The position numbers and the translations under genes are program-made. A model generated the notes under the pieces. That model was not told where the DNA came from, searched no databases, and saw only the letters and a program-made list of their open reading frames with translations. Shown here one piece after another: positions 2,804 to 32,416 of a stretch of DNA of 64,000 nucleotides; position 1 is the first letter of the stretch, and each line of letters opens with the position of its first letter. This DNA comes from Mobula hypostoma (taxonomy: Eukaryota): NCBI RefSeq assembly GCF_963921235.1, contig NC_086097.1, positions 74,774,001 through 74,838,000 on the forward strand, read 5' to 3'.

Positions 2804-3680
2804 TATGGTGGACCATATCTCAGTTAATGTTAAGTTGGACTACAGGAAGGAGGTAGAAAGTTTAGTGACATGGCGTCATGGCCACAACCTTTCCCTCAAT
2901 GTCAGCAAAACAAAAGAGCTGTCCTTGCCCTTGGGAAGGAAGGGTGGTGCAGATGCTCCTGTTTACATCAGTGGTGTCAAGAGGGTTGAGAACTTCAAGT
3001 TCCTAGGAGTGAACATCACCAATAGCCCACCCTGGATCCAACCACACAGATACCATAGCCAAAAAAAAGCTCACCAGCATCTATACTTCCTCAGGAGGGA
3101 AAAGAAATTTGGCATGTTCCATTTGATCCTCATTTAATTTCTTATCAATGTACCTTAGAAAGCATCCTATCCGGAAGTGTCATGGCTTTGTATAACAACT
3201 GCTGTGCTTCTGTCTGCAAGAAACTGCACAGTGTTATGGTCACTGTTCAGCACATCACAGAAACCAGCCTCCCCTTCCCGGGTTCTAACTTCTCACTGCT
3301 TCAGTAAAGCAGCCAGCATAATCAAGAACCCCGCCTAGCCCAGATACCTGCTTCCTTCCCCTTCCCATTAGGCAGAATACAAAAGCCTGAAAGCATGTGC
3401 CACCAAGCTCAAGGACAACTTCCATCCTGCTGTTATAAGACAGTTAAACAGGTCCCTTAGTACAATAAGATAGACTCTTGACCTCACAATCCACCTCATT
3501 ATGACTTTCAGCCTTATTGTCTACCTGCTCTGCACCTCCTCTGAAGCCATAATGTTTTATTCTGCACTCTATAATTGTTTTACTTTGTACTGCCATGATG
3601 CACTGTGTAATGAATTGACTATATGAACAGTATGCAAGACAAGTCTTTTGCTGTACCTTGATACATGGGACAATAATAAA
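2804..3680 (+). mobile_element. Rex1/Babar-like LINE, 3' part of RT and 3'UTR
   Basis: Encodes YRKEVESLVTWRHGHNLSLNVSKTKEL..VKRVENFKFLGVNITN..KKAHQHLYFLRR, with a 3' end near gacaataataaa. Confidence 0.85.
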
Positions 3681-4149
3681 TTTATAAATTTACCAAAGGT
3701 AATTTACAAAATAGTTTAGAAACACAGCCACTCATCAGTCACTGATATTACATTTTCTGCTGGGAGATATATTTATGCAAAAGATATATGTCCTCCAGAA
3801 TAATATCAAGCACTGTTAGCTTCAACTCAGTCCCTAAAGCAAAAGTGACACTTGTGTGATAAGCTGCTGATTTTCTTTGTGCATATGAGTACATAAAGCA
3901 TTGGCATGAGTAGCCCTATGAAATTCCTTTTTTAAAAGTCATTTAGAGGAGAAATATAAAGATACAAGATATATTGAAATTGCAGTCCATCCTCTTTTAA
4001 CCTACATACATAAGCAGTCACTTGGGCTTGCCCTCAGTATTCATCCAGAGGACTGTGACATTTTTATGCTTTATATGCTTCAATCTGAGTGGTAACCAAT
4101 CTCCAAGACATGCTGTAAGTCCACTTTTACCCTTGTGTTTTATGTCTCA

Positions 4150-4700
4150 TGCTCAATGGAGGCTAACACTAGAGACATCAGTAAATCTGCAGCGTCCAAA
4201 TGTATAGAGCAGGTGACTGATGCATTGTTTGCCAGAGGTAGCACTTTAACTTTCCCCATGGACATCTGACAACAGCCTGAGAGACCACTGCATTTTTCAA
4301 GTAGCAAGGTTACCCAAGGTCCAGTGTATTATTGATGGTACCCAAATGGCCCTATGTGCTTCTGTGTACAATAATTGTTCATTCATGACTGCAAAGGATT
4401 GCCCCACTATTAATGTGCTACCATGTGCACACATCCATGCAGGTAAACATCTGCAGCTTAAGCAGCATTTTTCATCCCTTTGTTTTTATGCCACCTAGAA
4501 AGAGAAGTACAAAAATTGGTTCCCAGGAGATTCATTCTATGTCCAACAGCTCAAACTGACAAGCTTCCATTGCTACTGTGGCCAGACAAAATAATGTCCC
4601 CACATCCACCAAAGCTATCATCAAATACGTTATTGTTTGCTGAAAACAGTAAACCAAATGTCTCCCTGCAACAACAGGATCGCAAAATAGATCTTGGTGA
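4150..4700 (+). mobile_element. Fossil PIF/Harbinger (HARBI1-like) DDE transposase fragments
   Basis: Collinear decayed motifs: ISKSAASKCIEQVTDALFAR (~4176), FQVARLPKVQCIIDGTQMAL..FMTAKDCPTINV (~4295-4417) and NWFPGDSFY (~4514). Compare the family motifs GFP.V.GAIDCTH, NRKGFHSINVQ and WLLGDSGY. Confidence 0.7.
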
Positions 4701-7700
4701 GGTTAGAAAGCTATGCATATGGAAGTAACAGGAAACAGTCAGTGAAGAGCTGACCTGCAGGAGAAAGCTCATGTTGAATTAATTGGTACTGAAGCATGCT
4801 GGTCAACTGTCAATACTTTTTTTTTACAAAGCTCAGTCCCTATCTGCTCAGTAAGGAGCAATGCTTCCAATTTTGCCAAATCCTGAGGAATAAGTCATCA
4901 CCTTCACTGACTTGATCTCCAACTGAGCTGCCAGAGATAACAGCCCTTGGCAAACTCCAGCTGCATGACAAGAAACCTCTATGGAGGTGGTGACATTTAA
5001 AGTAAGTGCCCTTCCTGTGCAGGTGATCTGTGTCTATGACTATCGTTGTTAATCCTCTTGGTGACAGTGTGTAATTGGTTTATATGAGACGGTAGGTGTC
5101 TACAAGATGCACAATATCAAGACAATCCTCACAAAGCTACAGGCTCCAACATGTCTCTACCTGCAGCATTACCTTAGCTAAATTGTTCCTACCCACTTCA
5201 TAGCCAATTACTACAATGAGCATAGTGGTGGAAGAGTTCCCAATACTTTTATTTTAATCCCATTATCAGTAAAGCCATAATTTTTTTTCCTGAAAGCTTT
5301 TTGGCAGTTTGCCCTTGGCATTTTTCTAACCTACAGTTTGCTGACCTTGCCTTGATCTCCAGGGTTAGCCTGATTTACACACCAATGACATGCTTCTCTG
5401 TATCAATAATGCCACTGTTTGGTAGCTTGCCATTTAGAAGGAATTCCACCACCTGCCATCTACTAAGTACATATTGATATTAAGGTTAAGGCATTATAGA
5501 TCCTTAAGTGCTTCTTCCAACTAGCTGTTGTGGAGAAGGGTGGGTTGGAAAACAAATATCTTCTGTGCATGCCCCTTCCCTAGGATTCTTAAATGCTTTC
5601 CTCTCTGATAGGTGTTGTCCATTTACCATTCATGTCATCACTCATGCCACAGGCAGGGTCAACAAACTGATGCTTAGAAGAATGTCAATGACAAAGCTGG
5701 CAAAATGAGGATCTCATACTTGAACCAATCTCTGAATTATTTGGGACCATTCCTATACAATGGTAGGTCTAATCCAGATAGAAATGTCTAAATATGAAAG
5801 TAGTTAACACTTGTCTGCTAACAGATTGAAATGAGGAAATACTTGCAAATAGTTCAGTTGAAATTCTGTTTTGAGAAGGAAGTACAAAAAAAGTTTTAGC
5901 AATATTATTAATTATACATCTTCAAATGACAAGAGAGGCTGGATCAAAGAGAGAGGAGCGAGCAAACAGGAAGGTGATGAGTGATTATGAAGTGATGACA
6001 GTGAGCCGGGCTAGAAAATAGAGTGAGGAAAACATACCCATGCTTCCTGAATACCAGTCAGTTCTGTACTGAGCAAATTAAGTTGCAGTGGGCAAGGAAT
6101 GTTCATCAGCATGGATCAAGCTGGCTGTTGTGGATTATATTTAGGAAACTAAGGTCATTCAGAGATTGGCTGGTGACCTTGAGGGAAAAGGTAAGGCCGG
6201 AGCTGGTTTTTCAGCATTCTCTCTTACATTTTCTGTTGATTTCATGTCAGTACAAGATGGTCCTCAAAATCTAGCACATGATTCTTGACAGACAAGTTTA
6301 ACTACATTAGTAAAATTAAATACAATTATTCAGAAGTAAATCTGTAACCAGGAAAGAAGAATGCTAAATTATTATGTCAGAAACTTGGAGGTTTTAGGGG
6401 TAGCTTCCCAATGAGAATTGAATTGCACTTTAGTATAATTAACTCTTTCATCACTTATTATATAGAAAATGGGAAAGGCAGATAATGTGGATGTAGTAGT
6501 TACTGTGAAAGCTATGAATGTGAAGGTATCCTGTCCTGCTTTTTGATTAACCATTTCATTTGTTTTTTTTTGCTCTCCTTGCTTGTTGTTTAGGTAAGTT
6601 ATTCGAGGTGGTGGTTGGTGAAGGAGAACAGGCAGGGTTTAACCAGTTGTTCAAGCAGCTGGCCATTTTACTGCAAAAAATAAAGTCAAAAGTTCAAGTC
6701 ACAGCCAGCCTGTCACTCGCTGTCACTCACTTCAGGAACTGGCTCTGATCTGCTTTCTGCCTGATGACCAGATGACTTTACTCTGGGCCTTTTCCTCTCC
6801 ACTGGTGACTGAGATGAGTGTTGCTCAAGACACAGTGAATGGTAAACTCATGTTTTGTAGGCCCCAGCTCCTCTGACCCTCCTTTTGACAGCATCCCGGA
6901 AGAAAGGAGTGCATTGAGTATTATAGGGAGCAGGTTAAAAAAAAGTGCTAGCACTGTTTTTCCCTTTCCGCAATGTTCCTGTTCTGTGGTGACTGCATTT
7001 TGCGTATCACCATAGCCAGGAAGAACCTATGGCTCTTGCCTGATCTCTCCTCTCATATGAAGGGGTGTGGTATTGAAACAACAGTAAATATTTGAGAGTG
7101 CAAGCCAATCTTGAAAGTTTTAATTTAATGTTGATTCATTTGTTCTTCTCTCTTAGGAAAATGATTTGGCAAACATTTCCACAGTGCATCAGCATACATA
7201 TATATTGTGCTGCCTATAATTTAAATAGTTCCAAATGTCTAAGGGTCTGAAGGCAAGTCTAAAGTGGAATAGATAGCTGGGATGTTACATGAGTAAACAT
7301 TGAAAAGGTGGGAATAAATTATCAAGAACCTATGTTCATTTAGCTAGTTACGCTCTAAAACACTGTAACGTACTTCTGTGTCCATTTTCCAACTCAATCA
7401 GTTACTGAATTCACTTATGAAATAGTCATTTAAGATTAATTTACTCTGATATCAAAATTTAAAGAGCTATGTACAGTGCTACTTTTCATGAAGGGTAAGC
7501 TATCCCCCGCCACTAACTGTTATTAGAAAACTATATATTGCTGTCAGCTGCGGTCTTCAAAGCTTAAAAAAGTTCCTGACACCAGCTATTGCTTTTCAGC
7601 ACCAATGCTTCCAGTTGCTAACTAGGTCTCCTCAATGCTAAATGCAGCTTCACAGTAAAACTTCCTCTAGCATCCATTTCCAGTACATTACTATTTTCTG

Positions 7701-9915
7701 TCATTGGTATTAAGGGTTTGGTACTTGATATTGCTACCTGATACCATTTGTTTTAAAACTTTTTAAAAAAGATTAAATCAAATGTTTGAATGTTGTTGTC
7801 ATTTAAACATTTCACTTAATGTTAAATGTCTCCTTATTTTTTTTTAAAATACCAGGGGTTGTTTAACATGGTTTCGAAAAACCAAGTTTTTTCTTTGTGA
7901 ATAAAGTAGTCTGATCTCATTCTGTCACTCCCCATTGTGTGGATAGAAAAAGGACTAACAAGGCTCCCAACATTTTTTTAAATCTGTACCAATGTTTATG
8001 CTTTTCATCAAAACCTATAAATTGTTTGCTTAAATTGTCAGACAAAACAATCATAAGACTGGGATTCCATTACACAAAGATACCAGTAAAGTTACTCTGG
8101 ATCACATTTTCCACTGATTTTTTTTGATTGAAGGCATAGTTTTCACACTTGCACTGGCTGTAACTTTGAATGAAATGTTATTTGTAACTAATTAATATCA
8201 ATGTTGTAAATAGCTTGTAACATGTCCAATAGAGGCAATAATTATTCACAATATTATTAGCACAGTGGTAACATTTTACCTGATTTTTCCGTAAAGCACT
8301 TTGTCCAGTAATTCGAATTTTTGTGATTCTTTTGTTGCATTACCCGATCTGAAAAATCATTATTTCCGTTAGTTTACTGAGTTTTTAGTTCTTCTTCTGG
8401 CTGTTCGTTTTATGTTATTTTATTCTGCTTTTCCTCCCAAATTAGACGTGTACTGATTCAGTTGTGTTAAAACAGCTAAAAGAAAATTGGATGTTAAATT
8501 GGTTGAGAATAAGTTAAATTGAATTTATTTAAACGTTTCGGAAATAAAAATAAAATGTTGCATTACAGTTTACAAAATAGTGTTCTATATTACTAGAAAT
8601 TGTTTATTTTCCACGGGAGATAATGCCGCAGATTATATCTTCAGTCGTTCCAAGGTAAAACGTGCTACATCTTCACTGTGAAATACGTCTATTTATTTGC
8701 TGCACCGTATTGAATAGGGTATCTTGCACAAGTACGACGTTATCCTACAAACCTCTACAATCACTAAAGTATGAACGCTAACAATAGAATGTACCAGTCA
8801 TATGAAATGAGTGAGTCGTGTTGTGATCCTCACGGTTTTCGCGAAACAAAAATGCTTTTAAGTGATCTGGAAGGTCGTAGTGAAGTGCCAAGACTGATAT
8901 ATAAACTCCGAGTGCTGATAACGCCCTTGTTATTTGCTTATTATTTTAAAGCAACTTGGTGGCTAATTTTGACCAATCCTTGGGAAAATGACAGTTGTCC
9001 TCAATGGGTAATAGGAATGTACTTTGAACATTTGAATACGTTATCATAATTGTATTCAAACAAATCTTGCCTAGATTGTTTTTTTTACCGTGGCTTAGAA
9101 TTGGATCAGCCTTTTATAATTTTTTTAAAAATTAAACTAAACGCAGTGTTTTGTGCAATTTGTTGATTTATGTTCACGGCGGTGTTGTTGGAATTCGTAC
9201 TTTGCAAATAACAGGACATTTAAATTTAAGTGAAACTGGACGCCCACCTTTTTTAAAAAAGTCTTCCCTTCAGGACAGCATTCAGTATTAAAACATTGCT
9301 TGGCCAGGTATGTATTTTATTGATAAACTATATTTGGACTAATTGCACAGGTGAACACGCCTTCCCGAGAGATTCGACGGACACTATGGTTCGCTGATGT
9401 TCCAGAATATTAACTTTCAGCTACGACGCCACGGGCTGCCTTCAGGTAGAATGTCAGTAACTTTGCACTGCAGAAATCCGGTCGATTCCTGAACGTGCGA
9501 TTTGCAGCCATTCCAACCCACCCAACCCCTCTCAAGCCGAAGGTTCCAGAGAACCGCAGGGTTTCCATTTGATTGTAAAGAAAGTCGCGACTGCACCTTG
9601 ATAGGCTCAGTACACACTAGTTTTTATTACAGTGGGAGAAACCAAATGTTAAAACTATTAAGAGTATTCCTGAAAGAAAAGTGGTAGGTTTCTAAAATAC
9701 CTGTGTCTGCATTTCAACAAATTCTCGCGTGCATTTTGTGGTCGGTTGTGTGAGTGTGCGTGTGTGTGATGCGCGCCCGCGTGTGTGCACGTAATTGAGG
9801 AGTAAAACTGCCGTGATCACCAGCATTAGGAGCGCACCGATTGCCGTCCACTGCTCTGCCCCACGTGCTGGGCTGCAGGTCAGCTTCACGGCTCCGTTCG
9901 CTGCGGCCGGGTGCG

Positions 9916-9929
9916 TCAGTAGGGGGCGC
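9916..9929 (+). promoter_or_regulatory. Candidate CTCF binding site
   Basis: TCAGTAGGGGGCGC matches the consensus CCASYAGRKGGCRS at 13/14 positions. An upstream TGCGG (9902-9906) resembles the TGCAG upstream module. Confidence 0.55.
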
Positions 9930-12900
9930 TCGGATGCCGCTCCCTCCACTTGCTGTGTCCTGCGACCACCAGTTCATCGCTGACGAATATTCATTTCCCC
10001 CATCCAGATCCCGAGCGCAGCCCAGCTCTCCATCCAAGATTTTACTTACACTTATCATGAAATCTTTATGCAATTAATACCCGCATTAGCCACCAACTAC
10101 CCGCGGGATATTTATAACCTTTTTATTCTGCATTGAGGGGAAAAATTGAATGCTTGCTAGGTAATAACAACGATTTAAAACGATAAATTATCAACGTTTT
10201 TGCGCCTGTTAGTTCCGCTGGTTCGAACACGATTTATTTGCTGTGCACTGCGACTCCTGGAGCTATAGTTGTGTGTTTTTTTTTCACGGAATTGGTCAAA
10301 TGTTGACAACCTTTAAGACATATAAGACCCAAGATTAGTGATGAGAAACTAATGAGGAAAAAGAGGGTCTTCATCTAAACTTCGCACCCGAGGCTTCTCA
10401 TTAAATCTGAACAGATTGGATATAGCCAAGATTCCTCAGCTGAAAGCTGCAGGCTCAACTTTATCTCAAGTTTTATATGTTGCTTCTTTTGTTTTTTAAA
10501 AAAATACATTTTCATCAGTAAAGCAAAAGGCAAACTGCAGCGTCTTTTGCGGAGCGGGAGGGCGATTCGATCGCTCGGTCTTCCCTTGAGCAGTGTGATT
10601 TACTAATTAGAATATTTACATCATTAAGTCGAGGAGAGCGAGGAAAAATATCCGTCATTCATTTCTTCTAGACTAGAGGTAGACACACTGGAGAGTGTGC
10701 AACCGTCTCTAATTCAAAAAGGCAGTCGGGCAGAAAAGGCTGTGAACAATATCCTGCTAGTTATTAATCAGTACTTCTAATAGCTCGGCGCTTTGCGTGT
10801 TGCAGCCGGCTTTAATATTTTTTGTAATATTGATAGTGAGCATTCTTCGCATAAAGCGCTATACACTTTTGATTGGCCATGCGAGTTTATAAATCATATT
10901 GCTAATGGGGAAATGATGTCCGTTTAAACTTTATTTGCATTTATTTGTAAAATTATTTTCAATTATAATTTTTTAAAAACACCACTGTAGAAGCACTTTT
11001 GAATAACGAGTGTGTTGTTGAGTCAGTACATCGGAAGAGTTTTAATGATATTCGTTCCTCTGCATTTCTTCTTTATGTTTATTGCAAATCAGAGTCTCCA
11101 CAGAGCCAGAAACGTTACCTATAAAGATGGAAAATACTACAAATAATATCTAGGCTTCATTCATTACCTCCATCTCCATCCTCCGGCCTTGGTCAAAAGC
11201 AAATAAGAGTTGGCATTTACGCACTAGGGATAATTATGCAAAATATTTCGGAGCTTCCTGTGGGGAATAATCTGTTGACGCTTATTTTTATTTTTTTTAA
11301 CTTGTTCGATATAAGAACGGAGATACAGTAATCTGATTGTGCCGCCCGGAAATCCACATTTACTGATGAAACAATGATTGTACTTCAGGAATACAGGCTC
11401 TTTCAGCATTCCTGTCATTTGCCTCTTATCTTTAAGCTAACGGTTTCAATTATGATAACGCAGTAACATTACAAATGCCGACATCCCGAATCATACTGTT
11501 TACATCCACATTGCAAGGTAATGTATTTCAAAATGTCTTCATATATAATCCGTTGGATAAAAGCTCATCCAGCCTCCTTAAACAGATAAAGGAGATAAAA
11601 ACGTGACTCAAGTCAATTCTATTTCCCGCGAGCCCCAATTGAATGGTTTACATGATATAAGTTGTCTTTTGCACTGGTTTCAATATTTCTCAGTGCGGTT
11701 TGCTATGTTGTTACATACTGTCTGCATCAAAGTGTGATCTGTATGCAGAGACAAATATAGACTGATGTCACTTATATTTGTATATTTTATGACCAATATA
11801 GAATACTATCGGCTTCAATTTGCACTTTTTTTTCCTTTACTCTTCAATAAACTGACGTGGTGCCCAATAGGTAACGATATACGCTATTCCTATAGTTACG
11901 CACTGGGAGATAATCCATTGTATTCACAATAAAATGACTGGAGTCCAATTTGCAGGAAGATACAGTGAAGACCGATTTTGAAACCAATATATTATGTGCA
12001 GGTTGAAGAAGAAATGAGCTGGAAGCAAAGCAAAACCTGATCTTAAAGACGGTCTGACATTTCCGGGAACAATCAAAAACTATTAAACAAGCATCGTTGC
12101 ACTGAGAAAAAAATACCAATAAGTCTACAACATCCAGCTTAGGTCAACAGGAATAATAATTTACCATACCGACGGATATATAAAGATTTCTAAAGCACAT
12201 CAGCAGTGAAGCAGAAATTTGGATTTGACACAAACTTAATGTAAACCTCGGTACTCCCGTTGCCAGTTCTTGCTCTAACCGTAACGGCTTCCGACTGAAG
12301 GCAATTCAGTGTTAAATGTGACCGCACAGCGGATGCAAAACATATAAAAAGGGCGAAAGATAGTCATTTTTTCGGCATGACATCGATTTCGCTTAAGGAA
12401 AGCGCATTGAATGGTAATATATAGACTCAGAGTTCAATTGACGTGTGATAAATATGCAGCGCTGCTTTTTCTTCCAGTAGGATTTCATTCCGCAGATAGT
12501 TAAAATGACCCAAAACATAATATTAAAACGAGTTAGTCTGTACTTTGGACTAATATTCTAATTAGGATGTGTCTTCAAGAATAACTTGTCACAAAGTCAA
12601 ACTTGTCGATTAGTGTCAATTGTTTTGAAAAAAAATACTCGCATTCGTTTTCAACTGGTAAATATTTTAAGGAGATCTATCAAAGAAGTACCCCTGAGGC
12701 CGAAAAAGAAGCCTTCCTTGGACATAATTAAAGAATACGCTTAACTACTGATAGTTTGAAATCAAGGCTAGCAGATTTTATGGCAAAACAAAATGTATTT
12801 TAGGCGATCCCGTGCGCACGCACGCCGAGGGTCACTCCGGTGAAGTCCGAGCTTTTATTTGCATTGATTTAGTTGGGCCCTGAGATAATAGCTAAGTATC

Positions 12901-14824
12901 CTCAGAGAAAGCGTTCACAGGTAATTTGTCATAACTTCCGTGAGAGGCGGTAACACAATCCGAATTGATTCTTATTCTCCTGTTCATGTTGGTTATCTGC
13001 GGACTTTTCAGACATCGGCACAGTAACCTTCTTGGATTTCTGAAACTGAAGCTAAGCCCAAACGTGAATCGAGTTTGTAAAGAGATTTTTCTTTTGCTTA
13101 TCTTTTGAAAAGAGCAAAGAAGTTTTGTTTTGTTGGAGGCGTTTGCCGATTATCCCATGCCTGGCTCCTGTTTTCATTGATCATTCCATATGAGATAATG
13201 CAATTATAAACATCAATAGGAGGTTGCTGCGGGAATCATTATCTGGTGACAGTGATAAATGATCTCCAGAAATAGCGGCGTTTTCTCTGACCCACTCTGG
13301 GCTCTAGGGGTTGGGATACAAGGAGTCTCCATAGTAACATGTTTACAGCTAAAATGGTTGGTTAAAAATTCCAAAATGCAGAAAAGTCTTTATACAGGCT
13401 ATTCAAATTTACAGCTTTTTTCCCCTTCGCTGGTTTTAACACGTTCTTAAGTGTAAACGAGTCTGTAGCAACAGAAATTAAGCGTTAGGCCTGGTCATTT
13501 ATTTCCCTAATATTTTAGTCTGCGTCTGGCAATCAATTCTTAAGAAATGTGATGACTTTTCTTGTTTTTATTGGTGAAAAAAATAGTTTTGCATTTGCAG
13601 TTGTCAATTATGTAAATGGTATTTTTTTTGTACTTTGATTTTTATAGATTTCTTCGCTTAAGTTACTTTAGTGGAACTGCTTGTTTCATTTTAATCAATT
13701 TCCCCGAGAATACATTTAGCCGTGTAGTCGATACCAAATCTTTATCAAACTTTCCGCTTTCTGAGATCCTACCAGGCAATCCAGCGAACAGCATCGTTCC
13801 CGTCAGCACAAAACGCCGTTTTTTTTTCTGGACAAATATATCAACTTTGTATTTGCTAAAAGTCTTCAATCTTGCACATTCTACTCAACACAAATACACC
13901 CCCAATAAGGATTGCTAAATGGCTTTTCCATATCAGGTGAAAATCAAACCACCTAACAAACAGGTTTAAAAAGCACGGAAAGATGCAATAGAATACTCTA
14001 AACTCACCAGATTTATTCGTCATCCTTTGTGATTTTAAAGTTTAGAACAAATGGGCTAAGAGGACCTTCAATTTTGAACGGCAATCCAGTTTTTCCATTT
14101 TGCACCATTCATTGAAATTAATAACTTGACCTGCAAGTCGGAGCGCACTCCGTTCAAGAAGCAACTACTATTTAAATTTATTAACAAACACACAAGTGGA
14201 AAACAGCAATTCCACCTTAGATTTCAGGTTAAAATCGTTTGTTATAACTGATTAACCCCCAGACCCTGATGCAACGATAGGCATATGTCTCGTATCTCTC
14301 GCCCATCATTTTTTTTTAAGTTCATTAACAATAAAGTTAAGAGAAGAAATATATTTCCCAATTGGGCGCAGGCGCTGTTCTTACACTTACAACGGGTCTC
14401 GCTGCACTTCAGAAGGAGGTACGCCAGATAAACAGTGGGAGCATTCAGAATGAAATTAAATGCAGGGGTTGATGAGGGGAAGTATGGTTACGAACATGGG
14501 CACTTGGCCTCGGATCTCGAGACTGATCACTTTGCAAAAGGGTTGTAAACAAAAACCCTCCCTGTGAGTAAATGAGCAAGAGAACGTTCTAGGGACTCTT
14601 TGGGAGGGCCCAGCAAAGATGAAAGAACAATGAGTCTGAACCCGCGAATTAGTTTGATCATTGGAATCTAGGTTTCAACAGAAAAGGCAGCAAGCGCCTT
14701 TACCATGACTGAAACTGCGACATCTCCTAAGTTTCGGGTCGGAGGGAAAAAAAATGGATCGGGATATGAAATGAATATAACTTAATTCCTAAGCAGGGGA
14801 GTTTCCAAAATGTTATAGTTAAGC

Positions 14825-14838
14825 ACAGCAGATGGCGG
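14825..14838 (+). promoter_or_regulatory. Candidate CTCF binding site
   Basis: ACAGCAGATGGCGG matches CCASYAGRKGGCRS at 13/14 positions. Confidence 0.45.
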
Positions 14839-15002
14839 GGTTGGTTCCTGCAGCTTGCAAACTGGAATTGCCACGCTGAAGCATCTTTCCCGCAACCCAA
14901 AATATTCAGCACAATTGTAAAATGTCTAAACATTCGCCCGTTAACCTCTGCATAACACGTTTACATGGTATCAACCCAGGCTGATTTTTTTTTAAATAGA
15001 CT

Positions 15003-15008
15003 TTTATT
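15003..15008 (-). terminator. Distal polyadenylation signal AATAAA (possible extended UTR)
   Basis: Minus strand reads cttAATAAAagtctatttaaaaaaaaa. Further AATAAA hexamers occur at 15431-15436 and 15470-15475. Confidence 0.4.
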
Positions 15009-15924
15009 AAGAAGCTCTGTAAACAAAAAGGAGAAACCTCCAGGGTTTTAGATACAATATAACTCACGTCAAATGCTGGCCAATCTGTCTTTCCATATTT
15101 CCATAAATACCATTATTCCCCCCACCCGCCACCATACTGACTTTGCAAAAGTTTTGGGATAATTCGGTCCGTTTGTTCTTTACGGACGGGGGGGGGGGTA
15201 GATTCGGTTTGAAATTAACTGATATTTTGCATCCTACCACTGAGAAGTAGATGGGGGGGGTGGAGCGAGTTAGATGGGGGAAGGCGTGCGACTGGCCCCT
15301 TTAAAATGAGCTTCCGTGACGTTTACCAGTGAAGTCAACTTCTGGGATTTGTAATGGATGAAATCATCTCAACACGCAGAGACAGAAAATTCTGGAAAGC
15401 TGGATACGTCAGCTGGTAACATTTTTGAACTTTATTAAACCCCATACCTGTGACCAAGATATTGGTAAATTTATTGGGAATCTTAGTCTGTTGATGAATG
15501 TTGTGTACAAAACGCTGTATAACACAAGTTTTTTTTTGTACAGAAGATACCCTGTGTATATATATTATATAAACCCTCTTAAATACTCCACAGACTTCTT
15601 TCAAGTGAACCTAGGTGCCCCAGTTCTTGTTTCCCGGAAAGAAAACAAATTCTTCCTGCTTTTGAATCAAATAGTGGCCATGTCTGAACAAGTGGCAAAC
15701 ATATCTTCCAAATATGACCAGCTTCTAGGATCAAACATAAAGCTTCACATCAACTGCTTGTTTTCAGCAGCAAACAATGTGAAGGAACCATACAGGACTG
15801 AACTAACCCAACAATAATGAAAATAAAACAGAAAAAGTCCTGTAGCTGCAGACACTTCCTGTGGAGTCCATTGGAAAGTCTCAAGAAAGCTGAAGTCATT
15901 CCAGGTGTGTTATCAAACAGAAAA

Positions 15925-17005
15925 AAAATCTAAAAATGAAATATTTATTACTGCATTTGTGACTGAACACCTTTTAAACATACGTCACAGTCCTCATACA
16001 AGTATTTATGTAATCTGACAAAGCTCGCAAGGGAAACAGCATTTTCTTCTAGTGACACGTGCTGATAACAGTAAGGAATTCATTGACATACAATACCAAT
16101 TCCACAGCAGATTTGATACTAGCAAAACATTCGTCATTTCTCATTGAGGTAAACACATAGATATCTAACATGTAACAATTAATATACTGAACTCTCTGTA
16201 CCAAGTATGTTACAGTATTTTTTTGTAGCCATTGCTTGTTCCAAGCAGTTTGAGTTCATTTAAAAAGGTCTTTCTTTTGGTTCAAGACCAGCTAAAGGAT
16301 ATTTCATTAAGAAAATTCTACCCAAGAGCATTCTGAATAGTTTGTGTGACAAAATTTTCTCAATGCTGTGACCCACAGCCATAGGAGGAAGCTGCTACTT
16401 CATCTTCAGTGTTCCATCAACAAGCTCTATGAAGAAGAGTCAGTCTAGGACATGATCAGACACAGGCCCTTCACTTGGATCGAGCAGGTCCTATTCAATC
16501 CAGTAAAATCAGGTATATGAGTGCATTCATAAAACTTTTCACCTAGTACCACATTCAAGGAAGTCTACAGATCTTCAATTAAGCTTCTTCCTCTATGGCA
16601 GCTTGGCTGGACTTGGACAACCTGGTCAGAAACACGACTCCATTTGCTGTACGAGGACAACCATTTTGGGAACAACACACATAGTGTGGAAAAAGGATAA
16701 CTTTCTTTCTAAAAACTATTGGAAGCAACAGAAATAGAGTGATCAACAGAAATGTACAAGTTAACTTAGTTCCTATATTTATGCTACAGTAGTAATAAAT
16801 CTTTCAGTCTTTTCCAGAGGAACTTAACATTGGAGATAAGTTCAGGTGAAGAAGGCCTTTGACGTCACATTGGCCTTGGCTTGTCATTGGTCCTCTGTTG
16901 ACGTTGAGAGAAAACAAAATCACAGCTCGTCTGGAATTCCATTAAGTGTCAACATCTGTTCAAAAGTTAGTCTTACATTTGTGGTTCTCTTTTCTTTCCC
17001 TTATA
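15925..17005 (-). other. MEIS2: MEIS2 3'UTR (core, to first strong poly(A) signal)
   Basis: Follows the TAG at 17006, is transposon-free, and ends near AATAAA at 15944-15949. Several blocks resemble the mammalian MEIS2 3'UTR as I recall it (not aligned). The cleavage site is approximate. Confidence 0.75.
15944..15949 (-). terminator. Polyadenylation signal AATAAA (probable main MEIS2 site)
   Basis: Minus strand reads gcagtAATAAAtatttcatttttagattttttttctgtttg: the hexamer is followed by U-rich/GU-rich downstream sequence. Confidence 0.7.
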
Positions 17006-17292
17006 CTATTGGGCGTGGATGTCCATAACCTGCCCCCCCACACTGGGGTCTACAGGATTTAACATTGTGGGGCTCTGTGCTGACATTGGCATTCCAGGGT
17101 GAGGCGGGGGTCCTCCATGCATCATCATGGCCGGGTGATGTGGGTGGCTTGAGAGATAGGAATGCATTGGGGGTCCATGTCTTAACTGGGCAGGGTGCGG
17201 GGTCATCTGGGGAGGAGTGTAACTTGGCTGTGCCATACTCATACCCATAGGACCGCCCTGAGATACATAGTCCCCTGGCATGCCTTGTAAAC
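17006..17292 (-). CDS. MEIS2: MEIS2 terminal exon coding part (long Pro/Met/His-rich C-terminus, c/d-type isoforms)
   Basis: gtcttttcag|GTTTACAAGGC... gives GLQGMPGDYVSQGGPMGMSMAQPSYTPPQMTPHP...VGGQVMDIHAQ* (ORF 17006..17314). It is in frame with the 19906 donor when the cassette exon is skipped. Confidence 0.96.
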
Positions 17293-19544
17293 CTGAAAAG
17301 ACAAAAATACACAAATGTAATATGTTAACATTAAAAAATATCTACAAAACTTATCCTTATGTCTTTATAGTTGTTTGTATGTGGTCAGGACACATACATC
17401 TCTATACATATTGGATTGCAGTTATATTGATATATTACGTATTGATGTATTACATAATCACATGAATTTTCTAATAATAAATCACACTAGACAAGTCAAA
17501 ATGATTAATTTAATCACCATGTGTTCAATCTTACTTATGGGTCACAGGTTCATGAAAAAGAAGGATCAAGTTTCAGGCAGAAAGAATACAGGGAATGACA
17601 GGAAAAAAAGAAAATTAAGTAAAACCAGAGAAGAGATTATTAAAAGAAACATAACATGTGATCAGTGTGCAGAAGATCTCTTGCACTTGATATCCCTCTC
17701 TTTTATCACTCCGTGTATCCAAATTTTTTAAAAAGTCTTTTCAGGAAAATTGGTGAAATGGTTTCCTAGTGTATTTTTTGAGTTTTTTAAAAAATTTGAG
17801 TCATGCATTTTGTTTGGACTCCTTGAAGCACAGAAGGAAGCTGGGGGATTGGGTGTGTGTGGGGGGGGGCGGTGAGGTCATATCTGTCGGTCTCAGAGTG
17901 TGGCATGTGGGCATAGTGAGAACGACCTGTCAGTAAATGTCAATCTGATCAGATCACCCATCTTGCTACAGCTAATCTTAAGATAAAGTAATTGGCGATC
18001 AATGTCGAAATCATAGGTTACAATTTTAGCTCTCTTCATCGCCTAGAACTTACCAACAGAATTGCGCACAGATTTTTTTTTTGATACCATAAACTGGTAT
18101 CTAAAGACCTGTATACTGTTGTCATTGTGTTAAGTAATTCTGTAGAGGAGTAGTAACCACACTGGTACAACCATACTGAGACAATAACACAGTCTGCACT
18201 GTGTAATATGTCCAACTCAATTCTGTTTATTCTAGCACAGCAGCATGCTCACTGGATGATGATAATTAAGTACCAAATATACCATATTGTCTGGCTGCAT
18301 AATCAAATAAAGGGAGGATAATATTGTTTGTATTAAGCCATTAATGTAATTGGTTATGAAGCATAAAATATGTTATGTAATTAAACAGACCAGAAATTAT
18401 ATGGCCTATATTAAGAATTATCCAAGCTGAGAAAATGTTGTCTCAATGACTGTTTTAGGGAACATTGCTTTTTACATTTCTTGTTGACTGCATCAGAGAA
18501 GGAAGGGCAGAAGGAAATTGACTCCATTGCTGGTACATTATGGTAACCCCCTCAAAGATCTTACATGAAACTATGAGCAATCTAAAACAATCCAGTCAGG
18601 TGACTGCAGGAAAGATCATTTGCTGACAACAGAATATGCAAGAAGACTGAAGGCGATTTAATAGTGAAATAGCCTGCTCCTATTTTAGATGTAAGCATTC
18701 GACTCAATGTTCACAAAGAGTTTCAGTAAATAAAACCTCATGGTCTGATGCCTCAACGATGTGATGTATTGGTGTTTGCTGTATCTGAATTCCTCAAACA
18801 TCACAGACATTGGACACACTCCAGCTGATGGATTACTTAGACTGCAGCCAATCAGCTTCACTGGCAAATCCATTCCTTCACTTGCAGTCATCTCTTAATA
18901 TCTGCCACTGGTTCTCTTTACTTTCCTGTCTCTTTTGTTTAAATCTCCCGCAGGACGTGATGGATGTGCCTACATGGGGTGGAGGGAGGGGGGAGAAACT
19001 CCAATGAGGGAGACGCTGTATTTCCAATGCCTTACATCCAGACTGTAGATTGCACACTGCAACATTTCATCTTTACATAAGATAATTTGTGAATCAATCG
19101 TTTCCTGACAGATTTATGTCACTCAAAGGACAGTCTCGCTTCTTGCTTATATCGTTTCATGAAGCCTGGTTAATTTCTCTTAAGTCAATTGGGTGCCCTT
19201 AAGTTGTTTCTTTTCCCCTAAATGTCCCAATTGCTCATCCACTGCTTGAGTTTGAATCTCTAGGCTTCATAATTAATCCAAATGACTTCAGACCTAATTT
19301 GCACTAGATACTGTAAATTAGTTATCTGACCTTTTGCAGTTTGAGGGATGGTGTCAAATGCCATGAGATAAATAATTACAACTGGCCCTTCACTGGAACA
19401 GCATGCAAATTCGGGCAAGGCAAAAAAAAATGGAGGAATGGGTGGGTGGGAATTTTTAAAAAATGCACTACAGTAATAGACAGAATAAACAGCCTAGTTG
19501 TACTTACTTCCCCCGTGCTTTGCGATTGGTTAACTAGATGAAGG

Positions 19545-19640
<96 letters not shown>

Positions 19641-19905
19641 TCAGCAAGGTCGACTAGTAGATAGTGAAAAAGACCCCTTTTAAATTTTTTTTTTGTATTT
19701 TAGGATCCGTGGGGTGGACAAATTCCTCACAAATCTCTTGTCTGCAAGATTTGTTTCCCCTTGGGTGCAAAGAAGACAGGCAAGGCAGGCAGCAGGCAAG
19801 GAGAAAAACCTTGTGATGGTAGGACATGACAGGTGACGTGGATGAGAGGGGGGGAGGAAGTGATGATGCCTCATTTAAAATGTGGGCCAACTGCATTTGG
19901 CTTAC

Positions 19906-20016
19906 CAGCAGGCCGAATTCCCATATGTTGCTGACCATCCAATACAAAGCTTCCCATTGGCTGGCCCTCTGGACTGTATGCTGCTCCTTGGCTTACTGAA
20001 GGATCAAGAAGAAAAC
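19906..20016 (-). CDS. MEIS2: MEIS2 coding exon with two alternative acceptors (111 bp from 20016, or 90 bp from 19995)
   Basis: caatcag|GTTTTCTTCTTGATCCTTCAG|TAAGCCAAGG...CCTGCTG|gtaagc gives (GFLLDPS)[30 protein letters not shown]. The optional GFLLDPS insert is characteristic of MEIS2 rather than MEIS1. Confidence 0.95.
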
Positions 20017-22027
20017 CTGATTGTAGTCAAACGTAGACACAGAGGAGAAAGAAAAGACATACCAAACAATCAGCAGTTACTCCTGAAACAGCAAACACAA
20101 TACGTTGTCGCACAAAAAAACATGAATGGAATTAAAGAAATAAATTAAGCCATCAACCATTACCCCACAACCCAGCATCTCTCCAGATTTGAACATTCTT
20201 AGCAACTCAAAGGTGCAACTTTATATTGCAAAGGTATAAACAACGGTAGCTCCTCTCCTCAATGCCTAGAAGATCTGGGAACTTATTTTGTCCAAGGGTA
20301 AGATTTTTCCCCTGCTTGTGCTGTCAATGCCTCTTAAATTAAAGATTACTAAATCAGGCATTGTGCCCTGATTGTCCCCTGATAATTAACTGTGACTATT
20401 GTCTACACCTTCTTTAATTGCACTCTAAGTATGAAGACATCCAGCCTAACATTTAGTGGATTTATTCAATCAATACCATCAAATTACATAAAACTAAGAA
20501 TAGTGTTATGAATAGTACGCAATTTATGATGATTAAAAATAAATTAAACAGACAGTTCCTTAAATCTCTAACTTATTAAATGCATGCTGTAGTACGGCTT
20601 TGACATTTATAGCCCAGATTGATAGGATCAGTGATTTTCACAGCAAAATGGAAGGCCACTCAGCCCATTATGCCTAAGGCAGCTCCATACCCCTACACCT
20701 ACAGCTGTTCAATTCTTCTTTTTACACTCAAAACTGTAGCTTGTGGTGAGTTCCCTCACCTCAGCCAAGGAAGGAACATTAAAAATAGTTTTCCCGGGTT
20801 TGGGAACAGGAGGGAAAAATTGGGAAAAAAAGCATCCAAGCCTACCCGTCCTAGCTTCTTTCCAATAATCTGTTCTTGAGTGTATGTGTGTGTTGATTTT
20901 GGGTAATGATAGCATTGGGTTTGACTGCGATGCCTCTCACGCATGAAGAAACTTGGGGAAGGTACTCAGAAGGCACCTGTGGATCCAAATCCCAGTTAGA
21001 GTCAGTGCCTTCCAGAGTGAGAGAGGAAAACTTTCTCCACACCATCTTGAATTTACTGAGTTTTGTCATGCAGCTTTGAGGTTAACTCTTACTCCCCTGA
21101 CAAATAAAACCAAATTTCTTTCTCGCTGTCAAAGAAATTCAGACTTTAGCCCCTGCCCATCCTATCCTGTTCACAGCACAATAACAATTCTGATCCCCAA
21201 GAAGTACATTTGACAAGTTGTACACAATTCACAGAAATAAGAAGCACTTTACATATTGAAGTAAAGCAGCGGGTGTAAATCAACATCAAATCAAAGCAGT
21301 GTGAGTGACAATAAAAGACTTCAATAAAGCTTCCGGCAATGCAGAAGCACACAACTCCATGGTCTGCACAACATGCTTACAGACTTAAATTTGTATGTGA
21401 GCCAAATTAAAACGAGTGATTTGACTGAAATTAAACATTCTTACCAGAAAGATTAAAAAAATAAAGAAAATAATTTATACTGGTTAATGAGGGACTATAT
21501 TTTCTTCTCCTCGTCAAATAGTGTATGAAAGGGAACACTATTTGATACTCAGGCTTGTATTTTATTTTAGAATTATTAACCAGGGTATTGTGTTTCAGTT
21601 TATTTTAACCACAATCATTTTAAAGGATACATAGCTATAATTAACAGTAAAATAAACAGCAGCAGGGGCATAATAACAGTGCATTTTCCCAGGAGTTGTG
21701 AGCAGTAAGGAAAAGCACCAGTGGCTGAGAGAGACAACCAGTGATTTTGCAGCAATAGCACCCACTCAGCAAACTATTTGTGGTGCAAGTATATTTGCCC
21801 AATTACCATCATTAACAAGAAATCAAAGCAGCTTTGGGAAAGTGAGGGTGGAAATTCCAGTTGGTATCAGTTAGTGAGGTTTCCCCCTGCACTGGAATTC
21901 TGGGTTGTTAGCTCTCCCAGAATGCCTGGCTGCTGGGTTTATTTACCAGGTGAAGGAACTCCTGATGAATAACTTGATGAAGATTTGTGCCTGCGGGACT
22001 TGAATACAGTAACTACTTGAGACTTGC

Positions 22028-22086
22028 CTGCTCGATTTGACTGGTCGATCATGGGTTGTACTATTCTTCTCCTGGCATTAATGAAC
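22028..22086 (-). CDS. MEIS2: MEIS2 coding exon (59 bp), homeodomain helix 3 / C-terminal end
   Basis: gtttgtcttag|GTTCATTAATGCCAGG...AATCGAGCAG|gcaagt gives (W)FINARRRIVQPMIDQSNRA. Phase matches the upstream exon (TG+G = Trp). The donor is GC, not GT. Confidence 0.97.
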
Positions 22087-24685
22087 CTAAGACAAACAGG
22101 AAAAGGGTTGATTTTACACCTCAATTTGAAAACACACTTAATTTTTTCTCATTTTGATTTATTAAAGGCACAGTAAAATCAGCTGCTCGCTATGGCATCT
22201 GTTGATTGCAAAGTCTTCTTATGGTCAACCATTTTAATATATTTAGTGTTTAAGATGAAATGTCTGTCTGCACAAGAGGCACAAACATGGTAAAAGTTCA
22301 TTGCTTCAGCTAGCTTGCTTTCTTCTGAAAGAAATTGTAACACCCCTTCCAGCTGTCTGTAAATGAAGACCAGGCTTTGCCACTCTCTGCTTTCACAAGG
22401 TATTGTTATGTCAGCAAGCCCATCAATTAGGCTGTCTGAAGTTTTATCACCACAGCAGCAAATAAGTGCCGGTACAGAAAGGCTCCTGCTCCTTCACAGC
22501 TCCTGCAGTTTCAGACTGTAAAGTCAAGGGGTCATTTGGAGGTTAGCGACTGGCAACAGTGACCTTTTCAACTGAGATTTCCACACCCAGGGCACAAAAA
22601 AACAGTTCATGCCCACCAGCAATGGAGGCACTAAAAAATGTGAGTGAAGGTAGACAGGCAACTTCGTTCCACGGGTCAAAACATACACTTTTGATTTTGT
22701 GATGAAAGATACATACTGTATGCACTTTGACTCTGGGTAATAAAGTGGTGCAAAAGGACCTAAAATGGAAGTGGAGCCCCCCAGTCCATTAAGAGCTTAA
22801 AAAGTAATACTTTTCTAGAGAACATATTGTTATAGATTCTTATATATTAAAAAAAAGTTTGACAATTTCTGTGTGCCATCAAAATGCTGCAATTCAGGAA
22901 AAATGGTGCCAAGTTTGCATTTTGCTTCTGGTTTGACCAATACAGTTTGATGGTCCATCACTGTTACCTGAAAGTTGCCACTTTCTTGTTCTTCTCAAAA
23001 AGCCGGATAAAAATTACATTGCGAGAGCTATTTGAAATTAATCATCGCAGGTCTGGCTTCAATTTAGCAGCCACACCTCTTGATCCCCTCTCAACAACCA
23101 CCACCCCCACCCCTGGAAAAAAAAGCCTTTACATTTCTTGCTATCTAAAACGTTAGCAATCGCTATGCAGGGGCCAAATGTTTGCATTTGAAATGGAGCC
23201 AAACTACTCTACTCCACTGACTTTTATGTCCAACTTAGAGCAAGAAATACAACTCATGCGAATGGCATGTAACAAATGTCTCATAGCTGTGAAATTGGGG
23301 GATGGGGAGGAAAAAACAAGAATGAACCAGGAGCCCAGAAAAAAGAACTGTACAATTCTATGACAGATTTCTGATGTAAAATAGTCATTGTCAAACACAT
23401 TATTATTTTTCTAAAGTAAGCACTCTTCTTTCAGAATGGACCTTCTAACGGAACCGCAATAATCTTGCCAATATTTGAGCAAGTGCATTATAAAATATTT
23501 TCTATCAATATACTAATTATTGAAGGGAAGAATCCTCTAAAGATTCGCATTTTATCTTGTTGTCAAAAAATGTCACCCAACACAATTACTTATCTTGCCT
23601 AAGCTCTAGTTGAAAAGCTGCTTCAGGCATTAAAACTAGCTAAGCAACTGAAGAAAGAGATGTTCTTCAGGGAAATGGTGAGGGTCCTTTTAACAAGCAG
23701 TGCAGATATCATTAAATCAAATCATCAGTAAACAAACATCTGTTCCACAGTCAGAATGCACAAAGTGACCCTGTGCAGAATGAGAACAATTCAGTTACGA
23801 TTACCAGATCCAGACGGAATTCAGTTTACCCCCATGTTCGCACTTGCCATTATTGAAACACAGGATGAAACAAAGTAATATTAAGTTTGTGTGCAGATAC
23901 AGTATCTGCAGATGTATTTCTGACTTGAGTCAATGGACCTTGAATACATGTCTAAATGGAGGTCTCGTGCAAAGAAACAGGTCAAAACAAACACCCACTG
24001 CAGATTTAATTTACAAGTTTTATAGGAAACGCTACAACTGCAATATTCAAATAAAAACTTTCAGATGAGGCATTAGCTTTTTGGTTTTTTTTAGTTGGAT
24101 CTGAATCATTGTCAGTTGTTGGACTTCCATCCCTAAGTTCCAAAGTCTAATTGCTGCCTTTCCTGAGGTTGAATCAGCAGTTTATTCTCACTGAGGCCAG
24201 TAGATGGAGTATTTTACAAAAGCAGGGCTTTTCATCCATGCGGAAAGACAAACTGGAGAATAAGACCAATCCGTTGAACTTTGGCCAGTTACAGGGCAGC
24301 ACTGACGGCCTGAATGCTTGACTGCCAGTGAGGGTGCTCCAAAAATTGCAAATTGTGACACATGACAGGCAGAGACTAAGGTTAACGCCTATTAAAGATT
24401 AATTGTGCACCCAGTTTTCTTCTCAGTGATCCTTGAGCAGAAGGGGATGGGGGGGGGAGGTTGGGACGTAGGAGTGTGGGAGAAGAGAATTTAGATGGGT
24501 CCAGCTCTTTACAGATGAACAAATTTACTGGGGTAGAAGATTCAATGGTGACTTTCAAAGAAGAAGTATACATTCTTTAAGAAGGAAGAACTCCACGGAA
24601 AGAGGGGGAAATGGGACTATCATATTGTCGTCCACAGCCAAGTTGCTCTTGTTTGCCTCCTCAACTGCAATGTTTCAGTAATGTA

Positions 24686-31245: not shown

Positions 31246-32416
31246 GATTGTATAAGGGTTGAAGCACTAAATACCCTCCTCTTACCCTTTTCTTTATGTC
31301 AGAAAATGAATGGTAGTTTGTGCATAAAATTTAAATTCATACTTATTAACGTAATAGATAGGAATAAATTCCCTTTAACACTCATTTTGACATTATGTAG
31401 CAAACTGAAGAAAACATTACTCTAATTCTTTGCAAAGTGACTGATTTCTCTTGTAAATTTTATCTTCCTTACATAAAACTTTAACCACCTTTCTTAAGGG
31501 AAGACCTTTTTATGTAGCATCTCCGACAAGCTAACAGTACTTACTTTTTGGAACTCAAATACCATAAATAGTATGGTTTGGGAGATGTTCATTCAATCCA
31601 GCCTGTTACTTCCTAACGCATATCCTCATAGGATTTATACCCAATACTGCATCTGGGTAAGGGTTGGGGGACTGTTACGTTAAAACTGAGCTCTTTGAGA
31701 CAATCATACTAAAATGCTTAATATTAATTGTGCCTGGGAGTAAACCCGTATCAGGCTTATCCCTGTAATTCTACAGTAGTATAGATTGGACTTAAATTTG
31801 ATGGTGCTGTTTTTCTGTTATCCAACAGGGACTGAAACCTGAGGATGAAGAAAGCTTTCCTCCAATTCAATGAGGTAAGTCTACTCTGTGATTAATACAT
31901 CCCTCTCTAGCACTGGCCAAGAAGTGATTGTGCACTATAAATAACATGCTTGATGCTTGTACAACACTGCAGTAGCAGCCAACTCAGTCATCACCCCACC
32001 ATGCCCACCAGTGGCATTCAACGTCCAAATCAGTGTGAAGGGTGTTGTGGGATGGGACATTTAGAGCACATGGCACAACTGGGCTGCTTATGGAAAGCAG
32101 CTGGTCTGTTGGTTTCGAGTTCCACCAGATCTTTGGTAGAGGTGGGGTGGGGTGAGTGTGGGTTCAGCTGGCTAGAGATCAACACCTGGTAGAGGATGGG
32201 GCTTTGGAGGTAACAGAGTTAAAGGCAGTCAACAATTCAAGGTGTTTGTGAGAGATATTTGGGGGTTTGGAGGATTTTGAAGCTGGCAATTATGAATTCT
32301 GTGGAATCAGGGAATTGGCAATAAAGAGATTGTGGGATTGGGACTAACTGATGGGTAACACAGATTGGAGAAACTCAAGGAGCAGAGGGCAATAGTACTG
32401 CTATTTATTCCAATCC

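Follow-up and report, generated by a model that had tools for sequence, protein, structure and literature searches.

The 64,000-nucleotide stretch of the Mobula hypostoma genome analyzed here (contig NC_086097.1, positions 74,774,001 to 74,838,000 of the forward strand; referred to as the window) contains the 3' end of a MEIS gene, whose exons lie on the minus strand, together with a domain of about 7 kb behind the gene in which CpG dinucleotides have been retained. The gene is assigned to MEIS2 because its exons carry residues which we take to be typical of MEIS2 and because it stands tail to tail with CDIN1/C15orf41 (PF14811), whose exons lie 22-54 kb to the left of the window. C15orf41 is described as a neighbour of MEIS2 in PMC2781166. 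The domain begins 23-540 bp beyond the gene's poly(A) signals, as given by the positions of two AATAAA sequences; these positions, the exon residues and the CDIN1 synteny bear out the first-pass annotation of the window, which had placed the domain downstream of the MEIS2 poly(A) site. The locus is laid out as follows.

3693..24674, tract of 21 kb without interspersed-repeat matches (longest such run in 38 non-satellite genome tiles, each only 10 kb long: 4.6 kb)
8290..15408, CpG-retaining domain 3' of MEIS2, a putative germline-unmethylated valley (CpG observed/expected ratio (o/e) 0.89, GC 39%, fitted edges, twin at MEIS1)
9330..10122, GC-richer core of the domain, with two Gardiner-Garden segments
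15431..15436, minus strand, second AATAAA, candidate poly(A) signal, 23 bp from the domain edge
15944..15949, minus strand, AATAAA, probably the principal poly(A) signal; it coincides with the end of human-fugu 3' untranslated region (3'UTR) element CRCNE00001063 (19 of 20 letters at 15933-15952)
17006..17290, minus strand, last coding exon of MEIS2 with its stop (17009-17290 without it)

The domain contains 244 CpGs in 7121 bp at a GC content that is merely the background level, while the o/e is 0.14 in the left flank and 0.21 in the right flank. The contrast between a CpG-rich domain and CpG-poor flanks, first noticed from the letters, is thus confirmed by the counts, and the edges proposed with it were recovered by a blind fit of two change points, which returned 8290 and 15408. 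The probability that a C is followed by a G is 0.177 in the domain and 0.040 outside it (Fisher p 1e-69, with edges picked on the same data), and the excess of TpG/CpA, which is the mark of deamination, falls from 1.29-1.31 in the flanks to 1.08 in the domain. In 39 evenly spaced 10-kb tiles of the genome the o/e of the best 5 kb averages 0.38; a single tile attains the level of the domain (0.88), this tile being a young L1 long interspersed nuclear element (LINE), and the next reaches 0.61. The domain combines multi-kilobase length (7.1 kb), a position beside a developmental transcription factor gene, a high CpG o/e and a low TpG excess, as would be expected of a broad non-methylated island or methylation valley. 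No segment of it is an island by the Takai-Jones rule (500 bp, GC of at least 55%, o/e of at least 0.65), and it includes three short Gardiner-Garden segments. Among the 40 between-species differences listed, of 548 in all, none is inside the domain, and CpG accounts for 7 of 22 flank transitions, against 18% expected.

No interspersed-repeat match to the sampled genome tiles was found in the domain, which is single-copy: when the genome was searched with very common words left out, the domain itself, one match at MEIS1 and one weak match of 47 bp came back. The description of the domain as free of transposons is accurate in this respect, but the repeat-free tract extends well beyond it and is three times its size, so that the absence of repeats is not specific to the CpG domain. 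No protein-coding gene was found in the domain, no Rfam match was obtained within 3700-24700, and the domain holds no DR2/DR5 retinoic acid element. The earlier statement that no credible gene is present therefore stands for proteins, but it must be qualified by the spliced non-coding RNA that crosses the domain (see below).

A second domain of the same kind lies behind the paralogous gene on C22, which we take from its residues to be MEIS1. This twin (C22:71731334-71737617; 6284 bp, o/e 0.93) occupies the same place behind its gene, begins at the first AATAAA downstream of it, and has in common with the MEIS2 domain two elements, termed A and B, which stand in the same order and orientation and are spaced by 2557 bp at MEIS2 and 2578 bp at MEIS1.

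10589..10627, duplicated conserved element B, 35 of 39 letters identical to MEIS1 C22:71736062-71736100
13184..13277, duplicated conserved element A, 86% identical in 95 columns to C22:71733391-71733484 at MEIS1 (E 3e-19 across the genome)
13247-13252 and 13253-13262, adjacent Meis motif and stringent Pbx-Hox motif of element A

With motifs defined as in PMC3261376, a Meis motif and a TGATNNATKR Pbx-Hox motif stand side by side in element A in both paralogs of this genome and, as judged by eye, in the human MEIS1 copy. The two elements are similar non-coding sequences found at paralogous genes in the same orientation and order, which is what defines duplicated conserved non-coding elements (CNEs). 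The twin domain and the shared elements are a new finding, absent from the first-pass annotation. Because of the twin and the collinearity of the shared elements, the arrangement, in which a CpG-retaining domain carries Pbx-Hox/Meis elements, is likely to be older than the duplication that produced MEIS1 and MEIS2, and the earlier suggestion that it is ancestral to jawed vertebrates is strengthened by being placed before that duplication.

MEIS1 and MEIS2 also each possess a promoter CpG domain of 14-16 kb whose composition is like that of the 3' domain; across the four domains, GC is 39-42%, o/e 0.84-0.93 and CpG density 33-41 per kb. The MEIS2 promoter domain lies ~107 kb from the 3' domain, and between the promoter and 3' domains the gene interiors peak at o/e 0.38 and 0.40. 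No sequence similarity between the 3' and the promoter domains was detected at E 0.01. (MEIS2 spans ~112 kb, from C1:74901593 to position 15415 of the window, and MEIS1 ~211 kb.) Fourteen control genes were examined, of which nine were informative (three PAX2/5/8-type genes, one EBF gene, three PBX genes, the PKNOX gene on C96 and MEIS3), while five (three EBF, one PBX, one PKNOX) were set aside, either for want of a located stop or for having less than 1 kb of downstream DNA. A single-copy 3' CpG domain was found in none of the nine, which argues against a general 3' island at long developmental genes: the 3' peak of 0.84 behind the PKNOX gene on C96 is a GC-rich tandem repeat, and MEIS3, which does have a promoter domain, has a best 3' peak of 0.62 that is 57% repeat. 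Since the twin is present and MEIS3 and the other controls are without such a domain, the 3' domain appears to be a property of MEIS1 and MEIS2 that was received from their common ancestor. The CpG-rich tandem repeat behind PKNOX (L114:5500-7700) lies beside an open frame which resembles the N-terminal part of a Helitron.

Conservation in bony vertebrates can be followed with the human-fugu elements in the supplement of PMC3261376. Those listed after the MEIS2 3'UTR element 1063 fall in the domain, in order: CRCNE00001066 (human) is element B, with 24 of 25 letters, and two others lie to its left.

10290..10314, minus strand, part of human-fugu CRCNE00001068 (25 of 25 letters; 0 of 100 shuffles)
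10385..10430, minus strand, probable counterpart of CRCNE00001067 (compared by eye, edges approximate)

Because these elements map inside it, the domain can be regarded as orthologous to the mammalian region 3' of MEIS2; a correspondence with the human region, for which an alignment had been proposed at the outset, is supported by elements 1066 and 1068 in their order. The MEIS1 twin in turn holds elements 1704 and 1705, of which CRCNE00001705 is element A in its MEIS1 copy. In the parts of the list examined, element A occurs solely at MEIS1 and element B solely at MEIS2, while this genome has both copies of both; loss in fugu alone may account for the one-sidedness. The elements CRCNE 3283-3465 were rejected as belonging to other loci, further motif terms gave nothing in the same supplements, and the paralogous conserved non-coding sequence table of PMC3595034, as far as it was available, holds one MEIS pair, which is located elsewhere. 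When the window is compared with organism F, the core at 9779-13894 differs at 127 of 4116 positions (3.1%) and the left flank at 161 of 3189 (5.0%; p 3e-5).

The domain is read here as the 3' partner of a gene with two islands, because of its CpG retention, the biology of such islands and the analogy with mouse Meis2. Germ-line methylation is probably absent from it, and the prediction is that Polycomb binds it and that it tethers the 3' end of MEIS2 to the promoter. The mouse precedent is a RING1B-binding site at the 3' end of Meis2, reportedly described by Kondo et al. in 2014. According to two reviews (PMC8594714, PMC4672759), this site, past the Meis2 poly(A) site, is near the promoter while Meis2 is silent and brings the promoter together with a midbrain enhancer before activation; the first-pass annotation's appeal to it holds to the extent that both reviews state its existence, and the correspondence proposed here is one of position and of orthology to the mammalian 3' region.

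The mechanism that these features suggest is as follows. CpGs in the domain would survive because they are unmethylated and hence not deaminated, and would attract CxxC and Polycomb proteins as broad non-methylated islands do. While the gene is off, its promoter island and its 3' island would meet, and once Polycomb is gone the Pbx-Hox/Meis motifs of element A could serve as an enhancer or as an autoregulatory input; the spliced RNAs described below would be by-products of open chromatin or of read-through. Several properties of vertebrate islands are compatible with this scheme. Non-methylated islands in zebrafish have background GC, Polycomb preferentially targets broad islands that lie at developmental genes, and broad islands carry trimethylated lysine 27 of histone H3 (H3K27me3) in 45% of cases in embryonic stem (ES) cells of the mouse, and in 89% in frog (PMC3583005). 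Polycomb also helps to hold methylation valleys unmethylated (PMC5806489).

A number of observations weigh against this interpretation. AT-rich DNA that is rich in CpG becomes methylated in mouse ES cells (PMC4204011), and a domain with 39% GC resembles such DNA. Across the domain as a whole Pbx-Hox motifs show no enrichment (1.26 per kb, the right flank having 1.30), and Meis motifs are scarcer. MEIS3 has neither a 3' domain nor element A, the profile of which gave nothing below E 5 in 130 kb of MEIS3 DNA. None of the 10 lamprey matches in the MEIS2 region that were obtained in a trace search of 2009 falls in elements 1063-1068, and the outer parts of the domain, at 5.7% and 6.1% difference from organism F, are no more conserved than the flank. 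Spliced RNA is, moreover, found on both strands of the domain, as would fit a long non-coding RNA (lncRNA) unit.

This RNA bears on the best of the alternatives. Three GT-AG joints occur in the sequencing runs X9 and X14, which are only guessed to be RNA, with X14 flagged as probably DNA, and are absent from the DNA runs X11 and X15. They delimit the following exons.

9351..9445, plus strand, internal exon of an antisense spliced RNA (run X9 only)
10918..11118, minus strand, exon of a MEIS2-sense spliced non-coding RNA (joints in X9 and X14; the left edge is a contig end)
14008..14151, minus strand, alternative upstream exon of the MEIS2-sense RNA (run X14, organism B; depth 4, the shorter side of the joint having 27 letters)
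14391..14495, minus strand, upstream exon of the MEIS2-sense RNA (run X9; the right edge is a contig end)

In the MEIS2-sense RNA the acceptor at 11118 recurs in two organisms, from two studies, joined to different donors (14391 and 14008). The antisense RNA, on the plus strand, has an upstream exon at 6090-6190 and its next exon at 31829-31874, in an intron of MEIS2. The spliced pieces tested contain no ATG-initiated open reading frame longer than 20 amino acids. The domain might accordingly be the promoter island of a germ-line or embryonic lncRNA, kept unmethylated by trimethylated lysine 4 of histone H3 and by transcription, with Polycomb and looping being incidental. This explanation, which had been offered from the start as an alternative, gains real support from the upstream exons of the MEIS2-sense RNA, which lie near the right end of the domain, and from the share that lncRNA starts make up among intergenic non-methylated islands, given as 9-15% in PMC3583005; such transcription is, however, compatible with the Polycomb interpretation rather than exclusive of it. 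The contigs reveal no start site, and the MEIS2-sense RNA may be read-through from MEIS2; the antisense RNA, which may be read-through from CDIN1, begins outside the domain, its upstream exon ending at 6190. In addition, 7 kb would be a wide extent for one promoter, the elements common to the domain and MEIS1 do not include the splice sites, and the doubtful nature of the two runs counts on the same side. A promoter island is on balance an unlikely explanation, though one that deserves serious weight. A contig of run X9 also covers element B at MEIS1 (C22:71736062-71736100; L004:6062-6100), so that transcription may extend to the MEIS1 twin, unless DNA is present in the run.

A different origin of the unmethylated state is envisaged if the domain consists of clustered Pbx-Hox/Meis enhancers that lose their methylation through TET activity and the binding of factors, acting as an ordinary regulatory or autoregulatory region without a Polycomb tether. 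That the element A motifs are preserved in the two paralogs and the human MEIS1 copy alike, and that the core is constrained, is in keeping with such a cluster, but demethylation in somatic tissues would presumably not keep 7 kb of CpGs in the germ line, and other conserved elements in the introns of MEIS1 and MEIS2 are without any gain of CpG, which leaves this account decidedly improbable. Still less can be said for a loop or boundary anchored by CTCF that closes MEIS2 at its 3' end, for which two motifs are the evidence.

9916..9929, plus strand, CTCF-like motif directed towards the gene, one mismatch to a CTCF consensus
14825..14838, plus strand, CTCF-like motif directed towards the gene, one mismatch to a CTCF consensus

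Two such motifs compare with 0.11 expected from random tiles (P ~0.006), and none of 300 shuffles had two, but the motifs were noticed after the fact. The MEIS1 twin has no such motif, and the MEIS2 promoter domain offers no convergent partner with one mismatch allowed. CTCF protects only a few hundred bases, and as the source of the domain it is very improbable. An origin of the CpG richness in a young or exapted mobile element or in local GC-biased conversion, to which the young L1 and the GC-rich tandem repeat met by chance among other CpG-rich tracts lend some colour, is largely refuted by the single copy and the lack of repeat matches, which rule out a young or tandem repeat, and by the background GC, the paralogous twin and the human-fugu elements inside the domain, and scarcely needs to be entertained further.

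If the Polycomb interpretation is accepted, its age can be considered. MEIS1 and MEIS2 are both located on large chromosomes on which paralogous homeobox clusters are found as well, and under paralogon schemes this linkage would favour a split between MEIS1 and MEIS2 at the first genome duplication. It is conceivable, although we put this forward only tentatively, that, ahead of the first genome duplication of vertebrates, the single ancestral Meis gene already had an unmethylated Polycomb island at each end, one at the promoter and one at the 3' end, that MEIS1 and MEIS2 inherited a 3' tether-plus-enhancer module whose 2.6-kb core spacing was kept for more than 450 million years, and that the elements were then split between the paralogs in bony vertebrates. 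Such a history would provide a dated and position-fixed Polycomb response element in vertebrates, where such elements have proved difficult to define and are believed to be replaced rapidly, and would predict a promoter-3' Polycomb loop, so far undescribed, at mammalian MEIS1, a regulator of blood and limb. A non-promoter island whose position is the same in sharks and rays, in mammals and in both paralogs would be a natural test of Polycomb recruitment and tethering by CpG-retaining DNA of low GC, and the two short elements are suited to reporters. Both the mouse example and this class of element have been described before, so the surprise is limited; what is new is the claim of age and paralogy. 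No MEIS1 3' twin or cartilaginous-fish counterpart was found in the titles and abstract openings of the literature, a weak negative, as few subscription papers were covered, and the available parts of PMC13047888 and PMC4901126 do not mention MEIS.

Some further features of the gene and of the genome may be recorded. An in-frame extension at ~21960-22030 (minus strand), after the second homeodomain exon, reads through the donor to a stop and resembles a truncated isoform of MEIS1. An exon extension had suggested that the gene was itself MEIS1, an identification ruled out by the exon residues and the CDIN1 synteny. That the domain might take up the whole interval from CDIN1 to MEIS2 is unsupported, the last exon of the CDIN1 domain being ~30 kb away. 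Further non-coding blocks common to MEIS1 and MEIS2 lie in the 3'UTR (16666-16769) and in the last intron (18294-18434). Elsewhere in the genome, L070 holds a near full-length young L1 with pieces of ORF1 and ORF2 and a high CpG o/e, and L071 consists of 10 kb of pyrimidine-rich satellite with a higher-order period of ~3 kb.

Among known systems, the domain falls outside the classical CpG island as defined by Takai-Jones. The duplicated CNEs described at MEIS2 (McEwen 2009, PMC2781166; Parker 2011, PMC3261376) are likewise shared between paralogs and contain adjacent Meis and TGATNNATKR motifs, but those assayed, in the available parts of these papers, sit in or beside C15orf41. The orphan CpG islands of poised enhancers, which are proposed to tether to CpG-rich developmental promoters by an ancestral vertebrate mechanism (bioRxiv 10.1101/2021.01.18.427085), are also distal CpG-retaining DNA beside conserved factor sites; in that account their position is seldom conserved beyond clades, especially in anamniotes, whereas the MEIS2 domain is larger and its conservation apparently spans cartilaginous fish and human as well as the two paralogs. 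With broad islands and methylation valleys (Long 2013, PMC3583005; Li 2018, PMC5806489) the domain shares a length above 5 kb, a developmental gene, background GC as in zebrafish and conserved elements inside it, but those islands lie mostly over promoters or gene bodies and the present domain wholly 3' of its gene. The table of mouse valley genes in these sources has 21 entries each for Meis1 and Meis2, listed without coordinates, so that no 3' valley is shown by it. The closest comparison is with the RING1B site of mouse Meis2, from which the domain differs in its GC of 39% and in having a MEIS1 twin, of which the available accounts of the mouse site make no mention, and with which it shares a place past the MEIS2 poly(A) signal, towards C15orf41, and sequence orthology to the mammalian downstream region.

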